In this document: positions 5,609-64,000 of the stretch, piece by piece
Layout of the letters: the number at the start of each line of letters is the position of its first letter
Numbering within the stretch: the first letter of the stretch is position 1
NCBI GenBank assembly: GCA_041633075.1
Contig: JBFKGZ010000001.1
Location: 854 to 64,853 of the forward strand
DNA: 64,000 bases
Direction of reading: 5' to 3'
Origin: Candidatus Deferrimicrobiaceae bacterium
GTDB lineage: Bacteria > Desulfobacterota > Deferrimicrobia > Deferrimicrobiales > Deferrimicrobiaceae
Position numbers and translations under genes: made by a program
The notes under the pieces: model-generated
Databases searched by the model: none
The model's input: only the letters and a program-made list of their open reading frames with translations
What the model was told of the DNA's origin: nothing

Positions 5609-5812
5609 TTATCGGGTCTTGTCGTACTTCTTGTGGAACTTCTCGATCCGGCCCGCGGTGTCGACCAGCTTCTGCTTACCGGTATAGAACGGGTGGCAGT
5701 TGGCGCAGATCGCCACCTTGATCTCATTGATCGCGGACAAGGTTTCGAAGGTGTTTCCGCATGCGCATTTGACCGTCGACTTCATGTATTTCGGGTGGAT
5801 GTCCGGCTTCAT
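5609..5812 (-). CDS. rpmE: 50S ribosomal protein L31
   Basis: 67-aa [12 protein letters not shown]...CACGNTFET...[13 protein letters not shown], classic L31 with Zn-binding cysteines. Confidence 0.9.
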
Positions 5813-5834
5813 CGGGTTGTCGCTTCCTCCCTGG

Positions 5835-7082
5835 TCACGTATTCATCGAGTCGAGAAAATCCTGGTTGGTCTTCGTCTTGGAAATCTTGTCGAGGAGGAA
5901 TTCCATGCTCTCCGCGGGAGACAGCGGGGAGAGGAATTTCCGCAGCACCCAGATCCGCTGGAGAACCGGCTTCTCGAGCAGGAGCTCTTCCTTTCTCGTC
6001 CCGGACTTGTTGATGTCGATGGCGGGAAAGATCCGCTTTTCGGAGATCTTCCGGTCGAGGACGAGTTCCATGTTCCCCGTACCCTTGAACTCCTCGAAGA
6101 TCACCTCGTCCATACGGCTTCCCGTCTCGATCAGCGCCGTGGCGATGATCGTCAGGGATCCGCCCTCCTCGATGTTCCGGGCGGCGCCGAAGAACCGTTT
6201 CGGTTTCTGCAGCGCGTTCGCGTCCACGCCGCCGGAGAGGACCTTCCCCGAAGGGGGAACCACCGCATTGTAGGCCCGCGCCAGGCGGGTGATGCTGTCG
6301 AGGAGGATCACCACGTCCTTCTTGTGTTCCACGAGGCGCTTGGCCTTCTCCAGAACCATCTCGGCCACCTGCACGTGCCGCTGCGCCGGTTCGTCGAACG
6401 TGGAGGAGATGACCTCTCCGTTCACGCTGCGCTGCATGTCGGTGACCTCTTCGGGGCGCTCATCGATGAGCAGGACGATGAGGACGACTTCCGCATGGTT
6501 CTTCGTGAGGCCGTTCGCGATGTTCTGGAGGATGATGGTCTTGCCGGCCCGGGGAGGGGAAGTGATCAGCGCTCGCTGCCCCTTTCCGATGGGAGCGACG
6601 AGGTCGATGATGCGCGTCGAGTAGTTGTCGTGCACATGCTCCATCGTGAACTTTTCCTGCGGATAGAGCGGGGTCAGATTGTCGAAGATGATCTTGTCCT
6701 TCGCTATCTCCGGGTCCTCGGTGTTGATCTTCTCCACCTTGAGGAGGGCGAAATACCGCTCGTCCCCCTTGGGCGCCCGGATCTGGCCCGTCACCGTGTC
6801 TCCGGTGCGCAGCCCGAAACGGCGGATCTGCGAGGGAGAGACGTAGATGTCGTCGGGCCCCGGCAGATAGTTGGAATCCGGGGAACGCAAAAAACCGTAG
6901 CCGTCAGGGAGAACCTCGAGAACGCCCTCTCCGGAGACAATGACCTCCTGGTCGGTCTGGGCCTGCAGGATGGCGAAAATGAGTTCCTGTTTCTTGAGGC
7001 CTGCGGCGCCGTCGACATGGAGGCTTTTCGCTATTTCCGTGAGATCCCCGATACGCATCGCTTTCAGTTCTTTCAGATTCAT
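5835..7082 (-). CDS. rho: transcription termination factor Rho
   Basis: Full-length Rho homology (MNLKELKAM...; Walker [11 protein letters not shown]; ...[10 protein letters not shown]). Start taken as the second ATG (7082), which matches the E. coli MNLTELK N-terminus and has better SD spacing; the track ORF begins 6 nt upstream at 7088. Confidence 0.9.
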
Positions 7083-8066: not shown

Positions 8067-8233
8067 CTGCGCAGCCCTCTTGCCGCCGGATGGCGGGGCA
8101 ACGTCCCGGATGCAAAGCCGACGCAGGCGCTCCCGCAGCAGGGCGATGGCGACGGAGCAGCCGAGGAAGGGGGTTCCGAACGGAGCTTCTCGGGGAGGAA
8201 GGGCGAGCGCAGACTTGCGGGTGGTTCGCAAGT

Positions 8234-8276
8234 CGAGCGACGAAGCGAGGGGCCCCCTCCGAGGATGCGGAAGCGG
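8234..8276. repeat. partial copy (core only) of intergenic repeat family (see 35359, 38296, 63950)
   Basis: cgagcgacgaagcgaggggccccctccgaggatgcggaagcgg is ~85% identical to the ...cgagccacgaRcggagcccccctccgaggatgcggagccg core of the larger copies. Confidence 0.4.
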
Positions 8277-32487: not shown

Positions 32488-33524
32488 GGAAACACGGGGA
32501 GCCCCCGGAGACCCTCGTCCTCCGGAAAGCCCATCATGAGGTTGAAGCACTGGACGGCGGCGCCGGAGGCGCCCTTCCCCAGGTTGTCGATCGCGGAAAC
32601 AGCGATCACCCGGCGGCTTTTCTCGTCGAACCGGACGGCGATGTCGCAGAAGTTGCTCCCGGAAACATCCTTCGTCGAGGGAAGGACATCCGGCGGACAG
32701 AGACGCACGAACGGCTCCTTCCCGTAATGCTTCCGGTAGGCCTTTTCCACGTCCTTCGTCACGACCTTCCTTCGCGCCATCGCAAAGCACGTCGCGAGAA
32801 TTCCCCGCCCCATGGGAAGGAGGTGCGGGACGAAGGTCACAGCCACGTTTCTCCCGGCGGCAAGCGAAAGTTCCTGGTCCATCTCCGGGTTGTGGCGGTG
32901 CGTGGGAAGTCCGTACGGGCGCACCCCTCCCTCTACCTCCGGATAGTGGAAGCCGAGATTCGGTCCCCTTCCTCCCCCTGACACGCCGGTCTTGCAGTCC
33001 GCCACGATCCCCTCCGCATCGACCAGACCTTCCGCAAGCAGCGGGTAAAGGGCCAGGATCACGGCCGTGGGAAAGCAGCCGGGAATGGCCGCCAGCCGGG
33101 TCTTCCGGAGAGCGTCCCGGTAGATTTCGGGGAGCCCGTATACCGCCTGTTTGCAAAGGCCCGGAAAATTGTGCCGGACCCCGTAGACGGACTCGTACAG
33201 CGGGATGCTTCGGAAACGGAAATCGGCCGACAGGTCGATGACCCGGGCTTCCCGCGGGAGAATCTTTGCGGCCACGGGGGCGGAAACGGTGTGCGGCAGG
33301 GCCAGAAATACCGCATCCACGTCTTCCGTGCGCACCTGCCCCATCTTTCCGAAGGCGACCTTCGGCAGCCTGCCGCGGAAAGGAGCGAACGCCTGGTCCA
33401 CCGGAAGATCCGAATATTGCTCGGAGGTAAGGACCGTGATCTTCGTCCCGGGGTGTGAGAGCAGCAGACGGATGAGTTCGAACCCGGTGTATCCCGTCGC
33501 CCCGTATATGGCCACCCTGGTCAT
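32484..33524 (-). CDS. argC: N-acetyl-gamma-glutamyl-phosphate reductase
   Basis: MTRVAIYGATGYTGFELIRLL... NAD-binding N-terminus and ArgC active-site Cys region (GCFPTA). Confidence 0.9.
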
Positions 33525-33539
33525 TTACCAACCTCCTCG

Positions 33540-33571
33540 AAAAAAAAAGGGAAGGCGCCACCGGCCTTCCC
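33540..33571 (-). terminator. intrinsic terminator downstream of rpsI
   Basis: Minus-strand RNA: GGGAAGGC-cggugcg-GCCUUCCC (perfect 8-bp stem, 7-nt loop) immediately followed by U9 (A9 on plus strand, 33540..33548). Confidence 0.7.
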
Positions 33572-34522: not shown

Positions 34523-35316
34523 GAGGAAAAACCGTTTTCCCGCTTCCCCCCGGCCGGGCGGGAGGACGGGCTTTTCCCGTACACCACCTCCCACAGGAAC
34601 AGTCCGTGGGGCGGAGCGGTGGGCCCGGCAAGCGTCCGGTCCCGCCGCCCGAGCAGTTCGCGGACCCAGTCCGGCAGGTTCTTTCCCCTGCCGATGTCAA
34701 CGAGTGTCCCCGCGACGTTTCGCACCATGTGCCTGAGGAAACCGCTGCCGGCAATGCGGACGGAGACCAGACCCGGAACGCCTTCCTCCTCGATGCCGGC
34801 GCGAAAAATTTCCCGGATCGTGGTCCTTGCGGCGCATCCCTGTCCCCGAAAGGAGGAAAAATCGTGCTTTCCCACGATATGTGCGAGACCTTGCCGCATC
34901 GCGTCGATGTCGACAAGTTTTCCCAGGTGCCACGAGTAGCGCGCCAGAAACGGGGAGGCGGCGGAATCAAGGTAGAAAAAGTACCGGTATTCCTTGCTTT
35001 TTGCGTCACGTCGCGCGTTGAAGGACGGAGATGCCTCCTTCGCGGAAAGGATCCGGATATCCGGCGGGAGAAGAGCGTTTCCCCCCCGGACGACTGTACC
35101 CAAAGAACGTCTCCCGGAGTCGGCGAAATCGACCACCTGTTCCCGGGCATGCACCCCCGCATCGGTGCGGCCGGCCGGCCGGAGACGGACCGGCTCCTGG
35201 AGGAGCCGGGAAAGGGCATCCTCCGCCACCGACTGGATGGTGACCCCGTTCGCCTGGCGCTGGAACCCGCTGTACGCCATCCCGTCGTACGCAATCGTCA
35301 GTTTTACGCGGCGCAT
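34519..35316 (-). CDS. truA: tRNA pseudouridine(38-40) synthase
   Basis: MRRVKLTIAYDGMAYSGFQRQ... with catalytic RTDAGVHA motif; 266 aa from ATG 35316 (track ORF extends upstream into the repeat, rejected). Confidence 0.85.
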   Translation of the reverse strand: MRRVKLTIAYDGMAYSGFQRQANGVTIQSVAEDALSRLLQEPVRLRPAGRTDAGVHAREQVVDFADSGRRSLGTVVRGGNALLPPDIRILSAKEASPSFNARRDAKSKEYRYFFYLDSAASPFLARYSWHLGKLVDIDAMRQGLAHIVGKHDFSSFRGQGCAARTTIREIFRAGIEEEGVPGLVSVRIAGSGFLRHMVRNVAGTLVDIGRGKNLPDWVRELLGRRDRTLAGPTAPPHGLFLWEVVYGKSPSSRPAGGKRENGFSS

Positions 35317-35358
35317 CGTTCCGGAAATTCTCCCTGTCGCCTCACCCCCGCCGAGGAA

Positions 35359-35571
35359 GGACCCTGGCTCGCGGGGGATTCCCCTCCGCATCGCCACGGG
35401 TCCCCGTTCATCGGCGCAGCAGCCGCAGGAGGCGGGGCGCAGTGAGGTAAAGCGCAGCCGTGCGGGTTCATCGCACGGCGAGCCACGAACGGAGCCCCCC
35501 TCCGAGGATGCGGAGCCGAGCCCGGGGATCGAAACGCCACCGGGAGCGGGGGAACCCTCCGCTCCCGGTGG
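35359..35571. repeat. intergenic repeat family copy A (asd-truA spacer)
   Basis: ~160-bp core (35359..35517) nearly identical to 38296..38542 apart from a ~90-bp indel; contains conserved hairpin ccgtgcg-N7-cgcacgg and, 3' of the core, a perfect 13-bp hairpin ccaccgggagcgg-N9-ccgctcccggtgg (35537..35571). Confidence 0.6.
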
Positions 35572-35601
35572 CACTGCATCGATCCGTACCGTCTTCGGCG
35601 C

Positions 35602-36639
35602 TTACGCGTGGGCGGGATGCAGGTGCTTCTGGACGAGCACCTCGGCGATCTGGATCGCATTCAGGGCCGCCCCCTTCCGCAGCTGGTCCCCGCACACCCA
35701 GAAGTTCAGGGCGTTCTCCGCGCTCTCATCCTCGCGGATGCGCCCGACGTAGCAATCGTCCTTTCCCGCGCAGAAAAGAGGCATCGGGTACACGCTGCCC
35801 GCCGGGTCGTCCATCACCTGGCAGCCGGGAAACGCCGCGATCAGCTCCCGCGCCTTTTCGCGGGAGATTTTCCTCTCGAACTGTGCGTTGACCGAGATCG
35901 AGTGGGCGGTCAGGACCGGTACGCGGACCGTGGTGCAGGTGATGCGCAGGTCAGGAATCCCCATGATCTTGCGCCCCTCGTTCGTCATCTTCATCTCTTC
36001 CCTCGTGTATCCGTTCTCGAGGAAGGCGTCGATATGCGGAATCACGTTGAAGGCGATCTGGTGCGGGAACGCCGCCACTTCCAGTTTCTCGTTGCTGGCG
36101 AACGCCTTCGTCTGCGCGATGAGCTCGGCCATCGCCTTGGCCCCCGCTCCGGAGGTCGCCTGATAGGAGGAAGCCACGACCCGCCGCAGCGTTCCGAAGT
36201 CGTGCAGGGGCTTGAGCGGCATGACCGCGACGATTGTGGTACAGTTCGGGTTCGCGATGATCCCCCGATTCCGGTATTGGACGATCGCGTCGCCGTTGAT
36301 CTCGGGCACCACCAACGGGATGTCGGGCTCCATCCGGAAGGCCGACGAGTTGTCGACGACCACCGCTCCGGACTCCCCGGCCGCCGGGGCGAACTCCCTG
36401 CTCCGGGACGCCCCCGCCGAGAACAGGGCGATGTCGATACCCCGGAAAGCGCCTTTCTGGAGGAGTTCGACGGGAACCTCTTCCCCCCGGAACCGGACCC
36501 TTTTCCCGACCGACCTTTCGGAGGCAAGCAGCCGGATGTTCCGAATGGGAAACTTCCTCTCCTCCAGGATCCGCAGCATCACGTTCCCGACCGCTCCCGT
36601 CGCACCCGCAACGGCGACGTTAACGTTTTTCGTGGCCAT
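35602..36639 (-). CDS. asd: aspartate-semialdehyde dehydrogenase
   Basis: N-terminal NAD(P)-binding VAVAGATGAVG and full-length Asd similarity (active-site Cys region NPNCTT). Confidence 0.9.
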   Translation of the reverse strand: MATKNVNVAVAGATGAVGNVMLRILEERKFPIRNIRLLASERSVGKRVRFRGEEVPVELLQKGAFRGIDIALFSAGASRSREFAPAAGESGAVVVDNSSAFRMEPDIPLVVPEINGDAIVQYRNRGIIANPNCTTIVAVMPLKPLHDFGTLRRVVASSYQATSGAGAKAMAELIAQTKAFASNEKLEVAAFPHQIAFNVIPHIDAFLENGYTREEMKMTNEGRKIMGIPDLRITCTTVRVPVLTAHSISVNAQFERKISREKARELIAAFPGCQVMDDPAGSVYPMPLFCAGKDDCYVGRIREDESAENALNFWVCGDQLRKGAALNAIQIAEVLVQKHLHPAHA

Positions 36640-36654
36640 TTCCCTCGCTCCTTA

Positions 36655-37743
36655 TCACGAGTTGTCCATAATGGTTTGCCGTACCCTGTCACCCATTTCC
36701 GAGGTTCCTACCCGCCGAATCCCGGGGCCATCGCGATAGATGTCGCCCGTGCGGTAGCCGTCCGCGAGCGCCTTTCCCACCGCGTCCTCGATCAGAACGG
36801 ACTCCCTGGCCATGGCAAAGGAGTAGTTTAGCATCATCGCAGCGGAAAGTATCATGGCCAGAGGGTTGGCCAGCCCTTTCCCCGCGATGTCCGGGGCGCT
36901 CCCGTGGATCGGCTCGAACAGTCCCACGTTTCCCCCCAGCGAGGCAGAAGGCAGCATCCCGATCGAGCCCGTGACCATCGACGCCTCGTCCGTCAGGATG
37001 TCGCCGAAGAGGTTCGTCGTGACGATCACGTCGAACTGCTTCGGGTTGCGGACAAGCTGCATGGCGCAGTTGTCGACGAGCATGTGGGAAAGGACAACGT
37101 CCGGAAACTCCGCCGCGCCCACCTCCGTGACGACCTTTCTCCACAGCACGGACGCCTCCAGGACGTTTGCCTTGTCCACGGAGGTTACGCTTCCCGTCCG
37201 TTTCCGGCCGAGTTCGAAGGCGACCCGGGCGACCCGCTCGATCTCCGGGCGGCAGTACACCTCCGTGTTGATACCCGTCTCGACGCCGTCGATCATCTTG
37301 ATCCCGCGGGGCTCGCCGAAGTAGATCCCCCCGGTGAGCTCCCGGACGACCAGGAGATCGATTCCTTCCACGAGCTCCCTTCTCAGGGGCGAGGCATCGA
37401 GAAGGGGCCCGTACACCTTCGCGGGCCTCAAATTCGCGAAAAGCCCGAGGGTTTTCCGCAACTCCAGCAGTCCACGCTCCGGCCTGACCTCGAAGGGGAG
37501 CTGGTCCCACTTCGGCCCGCCGACGGCTCCCAGGAGAATGGCGTCCGACGACCGGGCCAGGGACAACGCCCTGTCGGTCATCGGAATGCCGTGGACGTCG
37601 CAGGACGCCCCGCCCAGCAGTTCCTCCTCGGTCTCGAACAGTTTTTTCCCCGAGACCTCCTCCACCGTCCGGAGGACAAACAGCGCCTCCCGGATCACCT
37701 CGGGCCCGATCCCGTCGCCGGGAAACACGCAGATCTTGGGCAT
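36655..37743 (-). CDS. leuB: 3-isopropylmalate dehydrogenase
   Basis: 362-aa [19 protein letters not shown]... and conserved [13 protein letters not shown] motif. Confidence 0.9.
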
Positions 37744-37748
37744 GGCCG

Positions 37749-38246
37749 CTACGTTCCTTTCCGCCGGGACGCCATGTAGTTCAGCAATCCGCCTGCAGCG
37801 ACAAGTTCCTGCATGAACGGCGGTACCGCGGCAATGGCGTACTGACGCCCCTTCGTCTCGTTTCGCAGCATTCCCTGCCGCATGTCCAGCACAAGAACGT
37901 CCCCCGCATCGATCTCGTCAATCGCCTGGGGCACCTCGAAGATGGGAAGACCCATGTTGAACGCGTTCCGGTAGAAGATCCGCGCAAACGAGCGGGCGAT
38001 CACGGCGGAGGCTCCGGACGCCTTGATGGCGATGGGAGCGTGCTCTCGGGAGGAGCCGCACCCGAAGTTCTTCCCTGCCACGAGAAAATCCCCTGTGGAG
38101 ACCTTCGCCGCATACTCCTTGTCGATGTCCTCCATGCAGTGGCGGGCCAGTTCCGCCGGGTTTGAGGTGTTCAGGTATCGTGCGGGGATGATGACGTCGG
38201 TGTCGACATCATTCCCGAATTTCCAGGCCCGTCCTTTCAGCGCCAT
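37749..38246 (-). CDS. leuD: 3-isopropylmalate dehydratase small subunit
   Basis: 165 aa from ATG 38246 ([25 protein letters not shown]...); the track ORF's extra N-terminal extension runs into the repeat and is rejected. Confidence 0.85.
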
Positions 38247-38295
38247 GCTGTCTGTCCCCCCTCTCATCCACAGGTGACCGCGGCAACCAGGTCGG

Positions 38296-38680
38296 GGACC
38301 CTGGCTCGCGGGGGATTCCTCTCCGCTACGCTCGCGACCTTCGCCCGCTCGCTGCCGGTTCCGCTCGCGAAAGCAGGGAACTCTCTCCACAGGCCGCTCC
38401 GCGGAACCCCCCGCATCGCCCCGGGTCCCCGTTCATCGGCGCAGCAGCCGCAGGAGGCGGGGCGCAGTGAGGTAATGCGCAGCCGTGCAGGTTTACCGCA
38501 CGGCGAGCCACGAGCGGAGCCCCCCTCCGAGGATGCGGAGCCGGTCCCGCCATCGGCCTGCCAAGTCCTGCCCCAGGGAACAAGCAGGGACGGTCCTGTC
38601 ATCCCTTCCTGGTTTCTCCAACCTTCGTCGTGAACCGCGGGCCCGCTGTAGGCCCACCAAGTCCTGCCCCAGGACCGTCC
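38296..38680. repeat. intergenic repeat family copy B (inserted between leuC and leuD), composite
   Basis: Core 38296..38542 matches copy A plus a ~90-bp extra segment (tacgctcgcgacctt...ggaaccccccgc) that copy D also starts. The 3' extension holds a 17-bp direct repeat ccaagtcctgccccagg (38561 and 38657) and a 12-bp inverted repeat agggacggtcct / aggaccgtccct (38586 / 38671). Confidence 0.6.
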
Positions 38681-39943
38681 CTACAGTTCGTCGGGGCCGC
38701 CGATGCGGCCGAGTACCGCGGAGGCTGCCGCCACCGCGGGGTTGGAGAGGTAGACCTCACTCTCGGGATGCCCCATCCGGCCCACGAAATTGCGGTTCGT
38801 GGTGGCGACGGCCTTCTCCCCCTTTGCCAGAATTCCCATGTGCCCGCCCAGGCACGGCCCGCAGGTCGGCGTGGAAAAGGCCGCTCCCGCGGTCACGAAG
38901 GTCTCCATCAGCCCCTCCCGCATCGCCTGGAGGTATATCTCCTGCGTGGCGGGGAACACGATCATCCGGACGCCATCGTGGATTTTCCGGCCGCGCAGGA
39001 CCTCGCACGCGCTCCGGAGATCCTCGATGCGTCCGTTGGTGCACGAGCCCACCACGACCTGGTCGATGGGGACGTTCCCCACCCGGGAAAGGGACCGGGT
39101 GTTTTCCGGCATGTGCGGGAACGCCACCTGCGGCTCGAGAGCACCCAGGTCGATCCCCATCTCCGCCGCGTACCGGGCATCGCGGTCCGCCTCGACCACC
39201 GTGTATTTCCGGGAGGCCCGCTCGTCCGCGTAGGCCTTCGTGATCCCGTCGAAGGGAAAGATGCCGTTTTTCGCGCCGGCCTCGATCGCCATGTTGGAAA
39301 TCGTAAACCGCCAAGCCATCGGGAGAGCCGCGAGGCCGTCCCCGGCATACTCCATCGCCTGGTAGAGTGCTCCGTCCCCGCCGATCTCCCCGATGATGTG
39401 GAGGATGACGTCCTTGCCCTCGACCCACTTCCGTGGCTTGCCGGAAAGCACGATCCGGATCGACTTGGGCACCTTGAGCCACACCTCCCCGGAGATCATC
39501 GCCGCGGCCAGGTCGGTACTGCCGACTCCGGTCGAGAAGGCGCACAGCGCACCGTAGGTGCAGGTGTGGCTGTCCGCTCCGATCACGAGATCGCCGGGAA
39601 CGACGAGCCCCTCGTCGGGCAAGAGCACGTGCTCGATCCCCATCCGCCCTACCTCGAAGTAGTTCACGATCCCGTATTCGCGGGCGAAGTCGCGCATTAT
39701 CCTGGCCTGTTCCGCCGAGGCGATGTCCTTGTTCGGCGTGAAGTGGTCCGGGACGAGCGCAATCCGCTCCCGGTCGAATACCTCCCGGACTCCCAGGTTC
39801 CGGACCGCCTGGATGGCGATCGGGCTTGTCACATCATTGCCGAGCGCGAGGTCGACCCTCGCCAGGATCAGTTCCCCCGGCTCAACCGTCTCTTTCCCCG
39901 CGTGCCTCGCGAGGATCTTCTCTGTGAGCGTCATGCCCGCCAA
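38681..39943 (-). CDS. leuC: 3-isopropylmalate dehydratase large subunit (aconitase family)
   Basis: 420-aa [19 protein letters not shown]... with aconitase-family Cys ligand motifs. Confidence 0.9.
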
Positions 39944-63907: not shown

Positions 63908-63949
63908 GGCGATACCCTCCGTAGCTCCGGAGTGCTGCTTCCGGTGGGA

Positions 63950-64000
63950 GGACCCGGGCTCGCGGGGGGCTTCCGCATCCGCTACGCTCGCGACCTTGCG
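63950..64000. repeat. 5' end of another copy (D) of the intergenic repeat family, truncated by window end
   Basis: ggacccgggctcgcggggggcttccgcatccgctacgctcgcgaccttgcg matches the start of copy B (ggaccctggctcgcgggggattcctctccgctacgctcgcgaccttcgc), including the segment that copy A lacks. Confidence 0.5.

Follow-up and report, generated by a model that had tools for sequence, protein, structure and literature searches.

The genes encoding the large and small subunits of 3-isopropylmalate dehydratase, leuC and leuD, are separated by 434 bp in the stretch of Candidatus Deferrimicrobiaceae DNA analyzed here (64,000 nt in length, hereafter referred to as the window), and we found that this gap probably holds a copy of a lineage-specific, hairpin-forming, non-coding intergenic repeat that is dispersed in Candidatus Deferrimicrobiaceae, a reading to which we assign a probability of about three in four. 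The family was shown to be a mosaic of two modules, here named M1 and M2, that is intergenic and can face either way with respect to the genes around it. The insertion of a repeat copy between leuC and leuD is derived, and the site has been repeatedly reshuffled since. The family is new; it works like the ERIC, BOX, and BIME repeats, and is a member of none of them.

The genes of this region were identified by their Pfam matches, i.e., Aconitase for leuC, Aconitase_C for leuD, Iso_dh for leuB, Semialdhyde_dh for asd, and PseudoU_synth_1 for truA, and the minus strand is the sense strand for every gene flanking the leuC-leuD spacer. The stop codon of leuC, TAG, is located at 38683-38681 and the start codon of leuD, ATG, at 38246-38244, both on the minus strand, and these positions reproduced exactly the 434-bp split that had been reported in the first-pass annotation of this DNA. 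In addition, leuD has a purine-rich Shine-Dalgarno region of its own, GAGAGGGGGG, at about 38253-38268. The background for the spacer length was taken from a metagenome scan with LeuD, in which 56 distantly related leuCD loci with LeuC/LeuD of the same type, only from relatives with 67% identity or less and not representing orthologous sites, had spacers with a median length of 21 nt, the longest one having 224 nt. The 434-bp gap is, by this measure, unusually long. It had been proposed that the spacer is occupied entirely by one copy of the repeat, copy B, and this was correct for about 250 bp of it (38293-38541), while the remainder corresponded to an extension on the leuC side (38542-38680) and to a native leuD leader of about 46 bp (38247-38292). 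The order on the minus strand is therefore an extension of 130-140 nt, M1, M2, and the leader of about 46 nt. The coordinates of all these features are listed in Table 1.

Table 1. Features of the leuC-leuD region and copies of the M1-M2 repeat within the window.
Feature	Position	Strand	Remarks
leuC, 3-isopropylmalate dehydratase large subunit	38681..39943	minus	ORF and Pfam Aconitase, E = 6.7e-98
leuC-leuD spacer	38247..38680	minus	434 bp, leuC stop to leuD ATG
Strain-specific extension, leuC side	38542..38680	minus	130-140 bp; direct and inverted repeats
M1 subfamily a, copy B	38439..38541	minus	nhmmer E = 1.7e-24
M2 long form, copy B	38293..38429	minus	nhmmer E = 1.1e-33; alignment and fold
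87-nt distal M2 part	38320..38406	minus	In copy B, begins in copy D, deleted in copy A
leuD, 3-isopropylmalate dehydratase small subunit	37749..38246	minus	Translation, Pfam Aconitase_C, and homologue names
M1 subfamily a, copy A, asd-truA spacer	35414..35516	minus	nhmmer E = 1.5e-26
M2 short form, copy A	35359..35403	minus	Outer hairpin (45 nt) only
M1 subfamily b, copy C	8152..8273	minus	122 nt, diverged, extra internal hairpin
M2 3' part, copy D	63948..64000	minus	53 nt, ends at window edge

A total of three M1 and three M2 copies were found in the 64 kb of the window, a density of about one copy per 20 kb. The comparison of copies B and A showed 93.7% identity over 143 nt (38406-38548 against 35381-35524) and 96.8% identity between positions 38295-38325 and 35358-35388, and revealed that copy A has an internal deletion of 87 nt in M2, relative to copy B. 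This missing part is the extra segment of about 90 bp that had previously been noticed in copy B, and copy D, at the end of the window, does share it, as had also been observed (M2 profile E = 5e-8). Copy D is placed 42 nt upstream of a gene for an ABC-transporter ATPase, and the tip stem of copy C showed compensatory changes. The scan for tRNA and tmRNA gave no hits, the three ORFs of the spacer had no match in Pfam, and the gene callers used on independent assemblies called nothing between leuC and leuD. Searches against Rfam gave no matches at gathering scores when the whole window was analyzed, and nothing relevant at E ≤ 10 for the region 35250-38750.

The extension next to leuC had been regarded as a 3' part of copy B, and this did not hold: it is a strain-specific local rearrangement, absent from all the other repeat copies and present only in this strain and near-identical assemblies. 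In agreement, it was missing in the relatives L041, L024, L130, and L132. Within the extension, the direct repeat of 17 bp previously described at 38561 and 38657 is an exact one, ccaagtcctgccccagg, and forms the core of a longer direct repeat of 36 nt with 83% identity (38542-38577 and 38638-38673). Exact direct repeats of at least 17 nt were generated in 0 of 1000 dinucleotide shuffles of the spacer. An inverted repeat was also present and overlapped the leuC stop codon, as earlier reported; its length was however 13 nt and not 12, with the arms at 38586-38598 and at 38670-38682, the latter starting one position before the 38671 originally given. Inverted repeats of at least 12 nt appeared in 1.2% of the shuffled spacers. 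Neither kind of repeat in the extension is due to chance. When the sense RNA was folded, both the MFE and the centroid structures contained a stem-loop of about 93 nt that is closed by the inverted repeat and runs from the leuC stop codon, so that the stem-loop suggested from the letters of the repeat is indeed part of the predicted fold. In the relative L041, only 35 nt separate the leuC stop codon from M1, and they open with the same GGGACGG. Since M1 is reached in 35 nt in this relative, the extension has the appearance of a 36-nt local duplication combined with an inverted copy of the 13 nt that follow the stop codon, and we infer that it was generated by an event of the replication template-switch type, outside the repeat family.

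Next, the structure of each module was analyzed. The M1 module of copy B, which starts with GCTCCGCATCCTCGGAGGGGGG and ends with GGCTGCTGCGCC, was predicted to fold as a single long imperfect hairpin of about 104 nt, with a tip formed by CCGTGCG-loop-CGCACGG. The sequences on both sides of the module are mutually complementary (CCCGGG.ATCG and G.TGAACGGGG) and extend the full hairpin to about 130 nt. Across the copies, the hairpin had a size of 103-125 nt, or about 130 nt when the flanks were included, and its termini were GCTCCGCA... and ...CTGCTGCGCC. In the consensus hairpin, 98% of the cells were paired, compared with 42-57% in the slid controls. Changes on both sides of the stem were observed in 30 cells, distributed in three pairs, and the three tip pairs that change between subfamilies did so as CG/AU/GC, GC/UA, and UA/CG. 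The covariation score was 0.156 vs. 0.084, and none of 500 shuffles attained it. Compensatory changes preserve the M1 hairpin. On one of the M1 strands, G·U pairs were much more abundant than A·C mismatches; most of this excess is inherited within subfamilies and does not represent independent events.

The M2 module was found in two sizes, a short form of 45 nt and a long form of 130-160 nt. The latter is a branched hairpin with an outer stem, GGACCC...GGGTCC, that is followed by a G/C stem and a branched interior. The core of the module, GCGGCCTGTGGAGCGAG ... CGAGCGGAACCGGCAGCGAGCGGGCG.AAGGTCGCGAGCGTAGC, is nearly invariant, with about 60 nt showing no variation in 15 copies from several species, and is surrounded by outer stems with compensatory changes; one of the internal hairpins is optional and variable. 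The tetranucleotide GTAG was located inside the conserved core in 13 of the 15 copies, and not at the base of a terminal hairpin. The conservation of the M2 core across species is higher than a passive repeat would need, and hints at a recognized or functional motif. Taken as a whole, the M1-M2 sequence is non-coding, and its transcript is predicted to fold as a long stem-loop.

To extend the analysis beyond the window, a 19-mer from the M1 core was used to scan one genome per species. The scan retrieved 43 loci, about 30 of which were true copies, nearly all of them in MAGs of Candidatus Deferrimicrobiaceae or in 'Deltaproteobacteria bacterium CSP1-8'. Profile searches of the retrieved loci raised the numbers to about 37 copies of M1 and about 20 of M2. 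The conservation of the 19-mer motif is partly built in by this search strategy, as the copies were recovered with it, and those copies detected only with the profiles had at least one mismatch in the motif, ranging from CTCCGCAGCCTCGGAGG to more diverged forms. All of the approximately 37 M1 copies were intergenic, and about 15 of the approximately 20 M2 copies were located after M1 and in the same orientation, the usual composite being about 250-280 nt long. The variants observed comprised short and long M2, two subfamilies of M1 (M1a and M1b), and, in the loci L130 and L044, an additional GGGGACACTCC module. Many of the copies were truncated, internally deleted, or mosaic, such as copy A and those in L024, L023, L044, and L130. 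Neighboring genes were unrelated to each other and included truA, leuD, a gene for an oligopeptide-type ABC ATPase, a RluD-like gene, and uvrB, among others. When located between co-directional genes, 10 copies were in the sense and 8 in the antisense orientation, and another 5 and 3 copies were placed between divergent and convergent genes, respectively. This census was based on gene calls from a crude, GC3-based caller, and despite this, the absence of an orientation bias is clear. Moreover, the local GC skew gave no replication-strand bias of the type associated with single-stranded-DNA transposition (14 vs. 14 copies), and the scans of viral contigs with the M1 core and the M2 core gave 0 matches each.

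Some of these traits would also be expected if M1-M2 were a multicopy structured RNA gene or module, i.e., a small RNA or a protein-binding or catalytic RNA, with the M2 core as its functional site. The hairpins are conserved with compensatory changes, the M2 core is invariant in 15 copies whose stems and one internal hairpin are variable, G·U pairs prevail over A·C mismatches on one M1 strand, and the orientation is independent of the flanking genes, as it is for stand-alone genes. We nevertheless consider this explanation unlikely, because neither promoter-like nor terminator-like signals were found at the copies examined, many of the copies are truncated, deleted, or mosaic, and Rfam has no matching family, ribozymes included. 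In addition, the G·U excess is largely inherited within subfamilies, and the density in the window, with a copy every 20 kb or so, is the one typically shown by REP-like repeats rather than by RNA genes.

The history of the leuC-leuD site was assessed in relatives with the gene order pssA-leuC-leuD-leuB-asd-truA, where the first gene is pssA-like. Contigs of Deferrimicrobiaceae-type MAGs shared 94-96% identity with the window over 7-8 kb, and an identical LeuD was found in three NCBI assemblies. Two relatives at a greater distance lack the element, L135 (82% LeuD identity) with a spacer of 36 nt and L137 (78%) with one of 87 nt. In L024 (94% identity, 212 nt), M1 is inverted and accompanied by the 3' end of M2 only, and in L041 (90%, 392 nt), a forward M1 is found together with a long M2 that has an extra hairpin. 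The spacer of L130 (90%, also 392 nt) contains a 5' piece of M2, the different GGGGACACTCC module, and a forward M1, and in L132 (87%, 563 nt), the whole composite is inverted and its M1 belongs to subfamily b. Thus, five architectures were observed at this site among relatives with 87-100% LeuD identity. Similar changes were found in the asd-truA spacer, where M2 is long in L007 and short in the window, the indel being the one that also distinguishes copies A and B and being bounded by GGGG, and where L010 has an inverted M1 and lacks M2. A spacer of 17 nt in L003 was discarded as a further empty site, as its contig just starts inside the repeat.

The empty sites of L135 and L137, along with the varied architectures in close relatives, indicate that the leuC-leuD insertion is derived and that the site turns over. 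The types of reshuffling are inversion, of either the composite or M1, replacement by another subfamily, internal deletion, the addition of other modules, and, in this strain, a local duplication with an inverted segment beside the leuC stop codon. The possibility, raised in the first-pass annotation, that the spacer is a footprint of element mobility was therefore borne out as element turnover, given the empty spacers and the differing modules and orientations in the five close relatives, and the relatives did not show the alternative arrangement of a conserved spacer with no repeat elsewhere.

The same comparisons bear on whether the spacer contains a cis-regulator dedicated to leuD or to the leu operon as a whole, for instance an attenuator, a leader of the riboswitch type, or a translational operator. 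The element is found inside the operon and immediately upstream of leuD, the folds of the sense RNA are stable (z = -2.0 for copy B and -4.6 for the spacer of copy A), and the MFE structure has the Shine-Dalgarno region of leuD paired with a C/U-rich stretch from the strain-specific extension. However, the same modules adjoin unrelated genes (truA, the ABC ATPase, rluD-like, and uvrB, among others), the element is inverted within this very spacer in L024 and L132, and L135 and L137 keep the operon without it, making such a regulator very unlikely. The predicted probability of the leuD Shine-Dalgarno region being unpaired was 0.49, which is within the range of 0.41-0.78 of the relatives with and without the element; the predicted accessibility was thus not informative with regard to a sequestration of this region by the element. 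A riboswitch, leader, or attenuator class was also rejected, given the 10 sense and 8 antisense copies, the unrelated neighbors, and the lack of a match in Rfam.

The inversions could alternatively be the work of a site-specific recombinase, with M1 being an invertible DNA switch, or inverton. At leuC-leuD, the window and L024 have M1 in opposite orientations, and at asd-truA the same is true of the window or L007 when compared with L010, with a flanking DNA that is 94-96% identical in these comparisons. This explanation is nonetheless highly improbable: the spacers from four independent samples of one population (L128-L131) were 100% identical, and those of L132 and L133 were 99.8% identical; moreover, inversion comes along with the loss of M2 or with a different subfamily, no promoter-like hexamers were found in the element, and no recombinase gene was seen nearby. 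Lastly, an assembly artefact was considered, with a repeat collapsed or mis-joined between leuC and leuD. In its favor, the contigs of related assemblies are often interrupted within the element (L003, L004, and L010), and L004 joins an M1 of another subtype to an identical M2. This artefact can nevertheless be practically dismissed, because the identical 434-bp spacer joins both genes in two other assemblies (L001 and L002) and comparable long spacers were assembled in many independent metagenomes, with 24 contigs each for P0004 and P0016.

For the dispersed hairpin-forming repeat that we favor, the most likely way of spreading, by analogy with REP/BIME, ERIC, and BOX, would be that of a non-autonomous element mobilized in trans by a hairpin-recognizing enzyme, and its copies would then be homogenized and rearranged by recombination or gene conversion between them. 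The search for a transposase or RAYT-like gene in the 8-kb MAG slices and between inverted pairs found none. In L019, L009, and L031, the stretches bounded by two inverted copies of the element were considered as places for a mobilizing gene and rejected, as they contained housekeeping genes only, e.g., murJ, a gene for a PerM-like transporter, and uvrB/uvrC. The target-site duplication that the first-pass annotation had proposed to look for was not visible in the 16-nt flanks of 22 copies, where no TA duplication was found either; the M1 flanks in these 22 pairs are mutually complementary and not direct repeats. The empty sites of L135 and L137 are too diverged to be aligned with the occupied spacer. 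As neither a transposase nor a target-site duplication was found, the case for mobility comes from the distribution and polymorphism of the copies and not from a mechanism. In every close relative, the element is present at both leuC-leuD and asd-truA, a pattern explained by rearrangement in situ or gene conversion at least as well as by repeated transposition.

We then compared M1-M2 with known families of bacterial repeats. As in BIME and BOX elements, distinct modules are arranged in a fixed order and some of them are optional. The BOX elements of Streptococcus pneumoniae are made of boxA, boxB, and boxC modules in fixed order, with internal modules that are optional or repeated, and form stable stem-loops; they are not known to have a dedicated transposase. 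They are thus modular intergenic stem-loop repeats like M1-M2, but are unrelated in sequence, richer in AT, found in Firmicutes, and built from modules of other sizes.

M1-M2 is also a non-coding palindrome within the 50-300 bp of MITE/ERIC-like elements, with polymorphism in presence or absence and in orientation at orthologous sites. The ERIC/IRU (RU-1) elements of enterobacteria are, like M1-M2, imperfect palindromes of about 100-130 bp that are intergenic and transcribed, found also inside operons, inserted in either orientation, and present as size variants caused by internal indels at fixed positions (PMC2229807). ERIC elements nevertheless have no sequence relationship with M1-M2 and belong to a different phylum; they have short terminal inverted repeats with TA target duplications, which were not seen at the 22 copies compared, where the ends are complementary as part of the hairpin. 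M1-M2, in turn, is a two-module mosaic whose second module is branched. The Correia/NEMIS elements of Neisseria share with M1-M2 the intergenic location, a size of 100-155 bp, and long and short forms produced by internal deletion, and they are co-transcribed with their neighbors as hairpins that are substrates of RNase III (PMC2229807). Their terminal inverted repeats of 24 bp, TA duplications, and IHF site are not evident in M1-M2.

REP, BIME, and REPIN sequences are, as M1-M2, GC-rich extragenic palindromes with high copy numbers that form mosaics with other motifs, and REP/BIME occupy conserved sites in related genomes, with variable content and orientation (PMC3733652). The roles proposed for REP include mRNA stabilization, and a mobilization of their single-stranded hairpins by a Y1 transposase has also been proposed (PMC3733652). 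A REP is, however, 20-40 nt long and carries an unpaired GTAG/CGTC tag at one end (PMC3733652), whereas M1 and M2 are long hairpins of 104-160 nt without a terminal tag; M1-M2 thus departs from the REP definition in size and terminal tag and agrees with it in being extragenic and of high copy number. REP/REPIN also have RAYT transposases, and for M1-M2 no RAYT gene was found in the 8-kb MAG slices. A full-text literature search gave no paper containing the M1 or M2 core sequences, and the papers on Deferrimicrobiaceae that it found were ecological or nomenclatural.

As for the expression of the operon, the scan of the region 35000-39000 found neither a sigma-70-like promoter nor an intrinsic terminator, i.e., a GC-rich hairpin followed by a T-run, on the sense strand, and the simplest reading of this result is read-through of leuC-leuD-leuB-asd. 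The repeat would then be co-transcribed within the leuCDB-asd message, where it would form very stable stem-loops. These may uncouple the translation of leuC from that of leuD, which its own Shine-Dalgarno region would allow leuD to tolerate, and they could possibly act as a barrier to 3'-exonucleases or as a site for RNase processing. Any effect on the leuC:leuD ratio would in that case be a by-product and not the action of a dedicated regulator. The change in the leuC:leuD expression ratio contemplated in the first-pass annotation is kept here as a conjecture. In Yersinia, co-transcribed copies of ERIC change the stability of the flanking mRNA segments in an orientation-dependent manner (PMC2229807), and by analogy, this would be the closest functional precedent for the idea.

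Collectively, this is the first description of a dispersed repeat family, with its boundaries, consensus structures, and profiles, in Candidatus Deferrimicrobiota, an uncultured lineage of phylum rank. It leaves the knowledge of leucine biosynthesis and of mobile DNA unchanged and should not surprise a specialist. The M1-M2 repeats break short-read assemblies, and several MAG contigs end inside the element; they also give rise to spurious ORFs, and are usable as strain markers. It is conceivable, though improbable in our opinion, that M1-M2 is more than a passive REP-like repeat and that its nearly invariant M2 core (about 60 nt, within covarying stems) serves as the recognition site, or as an active RNA or single-stranded-DNA fold, of a novel mobilization or RNA-processing system specific to Candidatus Deferrimicrobiota; if true, this would account for the conservation of the core in different species as well as for the same intergenic sites being targeted again and again. 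Finally, the presence of the element in an essential biosynthetic operon, in either orientation or absent, represents a natural experiment on the influence of hairpin repeats on the stoichiometry of a two-subunit enzyme.

The spacing between M2, one of the two modules of the hairpin-forming intergenic repeat family, and the following gene was measured, and the M2 3' end was found 42-49 nt upstream of the next start codon in all three window copies (Table). At one locus from another assembly (L041), this distance was about 90-100 nt, and thus the constant spacing in the window may be a coincidence. The orientation of the elements was also analyzed. All four window copies were in the minus-strand orientation, and this strand bears the great majority of the genes in the stretch. 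When positions 1-64000 were divided into 64 1-kb windows, 61 of these showed a negative GC skew on the plus strand. The stretch probably belongs to a single replichore throughout, in which the leading strand would be the minus strand. When M1 copies were compared with flanking genes and local GC skew in the wider census of collected loci, no orientation bias of the kind seen in these four copies was detected.

Table. Coordinates of repeat modules and of the stem-loop downstream of asd
Feature	Location	Strand	Details
M2 3' end	window 35359		before truA
M2 3' end	window 38296		before leuD
M2 3' end	window 63950		before ABC ATPase
Stem-loop	window 35536-35572	minus	near-perfect 14-bp arms, GCCACCGGGAGCGG...CCGCTCCCGGTGGC, then GTTTCG
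Third repeat module	L130:1650-1760		GGGGACACTCC / GGAGTGTCCCC
Third repeat module	L044 about 5700-5860		GGGGACACTCC / GGAGTGTCCCC

Two further features lay outside the M1/M2 family. The stem-loop found directly after the asd stop (35602), ahead of the asd-truA copy, does not belong to this family; it was kept in the relative L007 with altered loop and stem bases, and it may serve asd either as a weak terminator or as an RNA-stability hairpin. The intergenic region at 33524-33543 contained only a run of A in the window, in place of 72-87 extra nt in the close relatives L007 (3750-3841) and L010 that hold a GGACC...GGTCC-type hairpin. This is a further small indel polymorphism in which M1 and M2 are not involved.

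Contigs of the MAG DATHRT01 (L007, L015, L024, and L045) matched both the window and Deferrimicrobiaceae MAGs at 95-96% identity across 7-8 kb. This MAG carries the label Candidatus Limnocylindria, and it is either a contaminated bin or taxonomically mislabeled. In L004:1-100 (GCA_041566755.1), LeuD and M2 were identical to those of the window, and M1 was of another subtype, with a CCTTGCG...GCAAGC tip, indicating either M1 replacement at strain level or an assembly chimera at the repeat.

Additional modules were observed in the relatives. A third one, with inverted motifs, adjoined M1 and M2 there, and no copy of it was found in the window. Moreover, copies of the M1b subfamily usually had a conserved stretch of about 40 nt upstream, …GCGC.CCC..TGCGG.GC.TCATGGCCGG (L009, L018, L019, L042, and L046), and the family is therefore a mosaic with modules beyond the M1 and M2 of the leuC-leuD copy.
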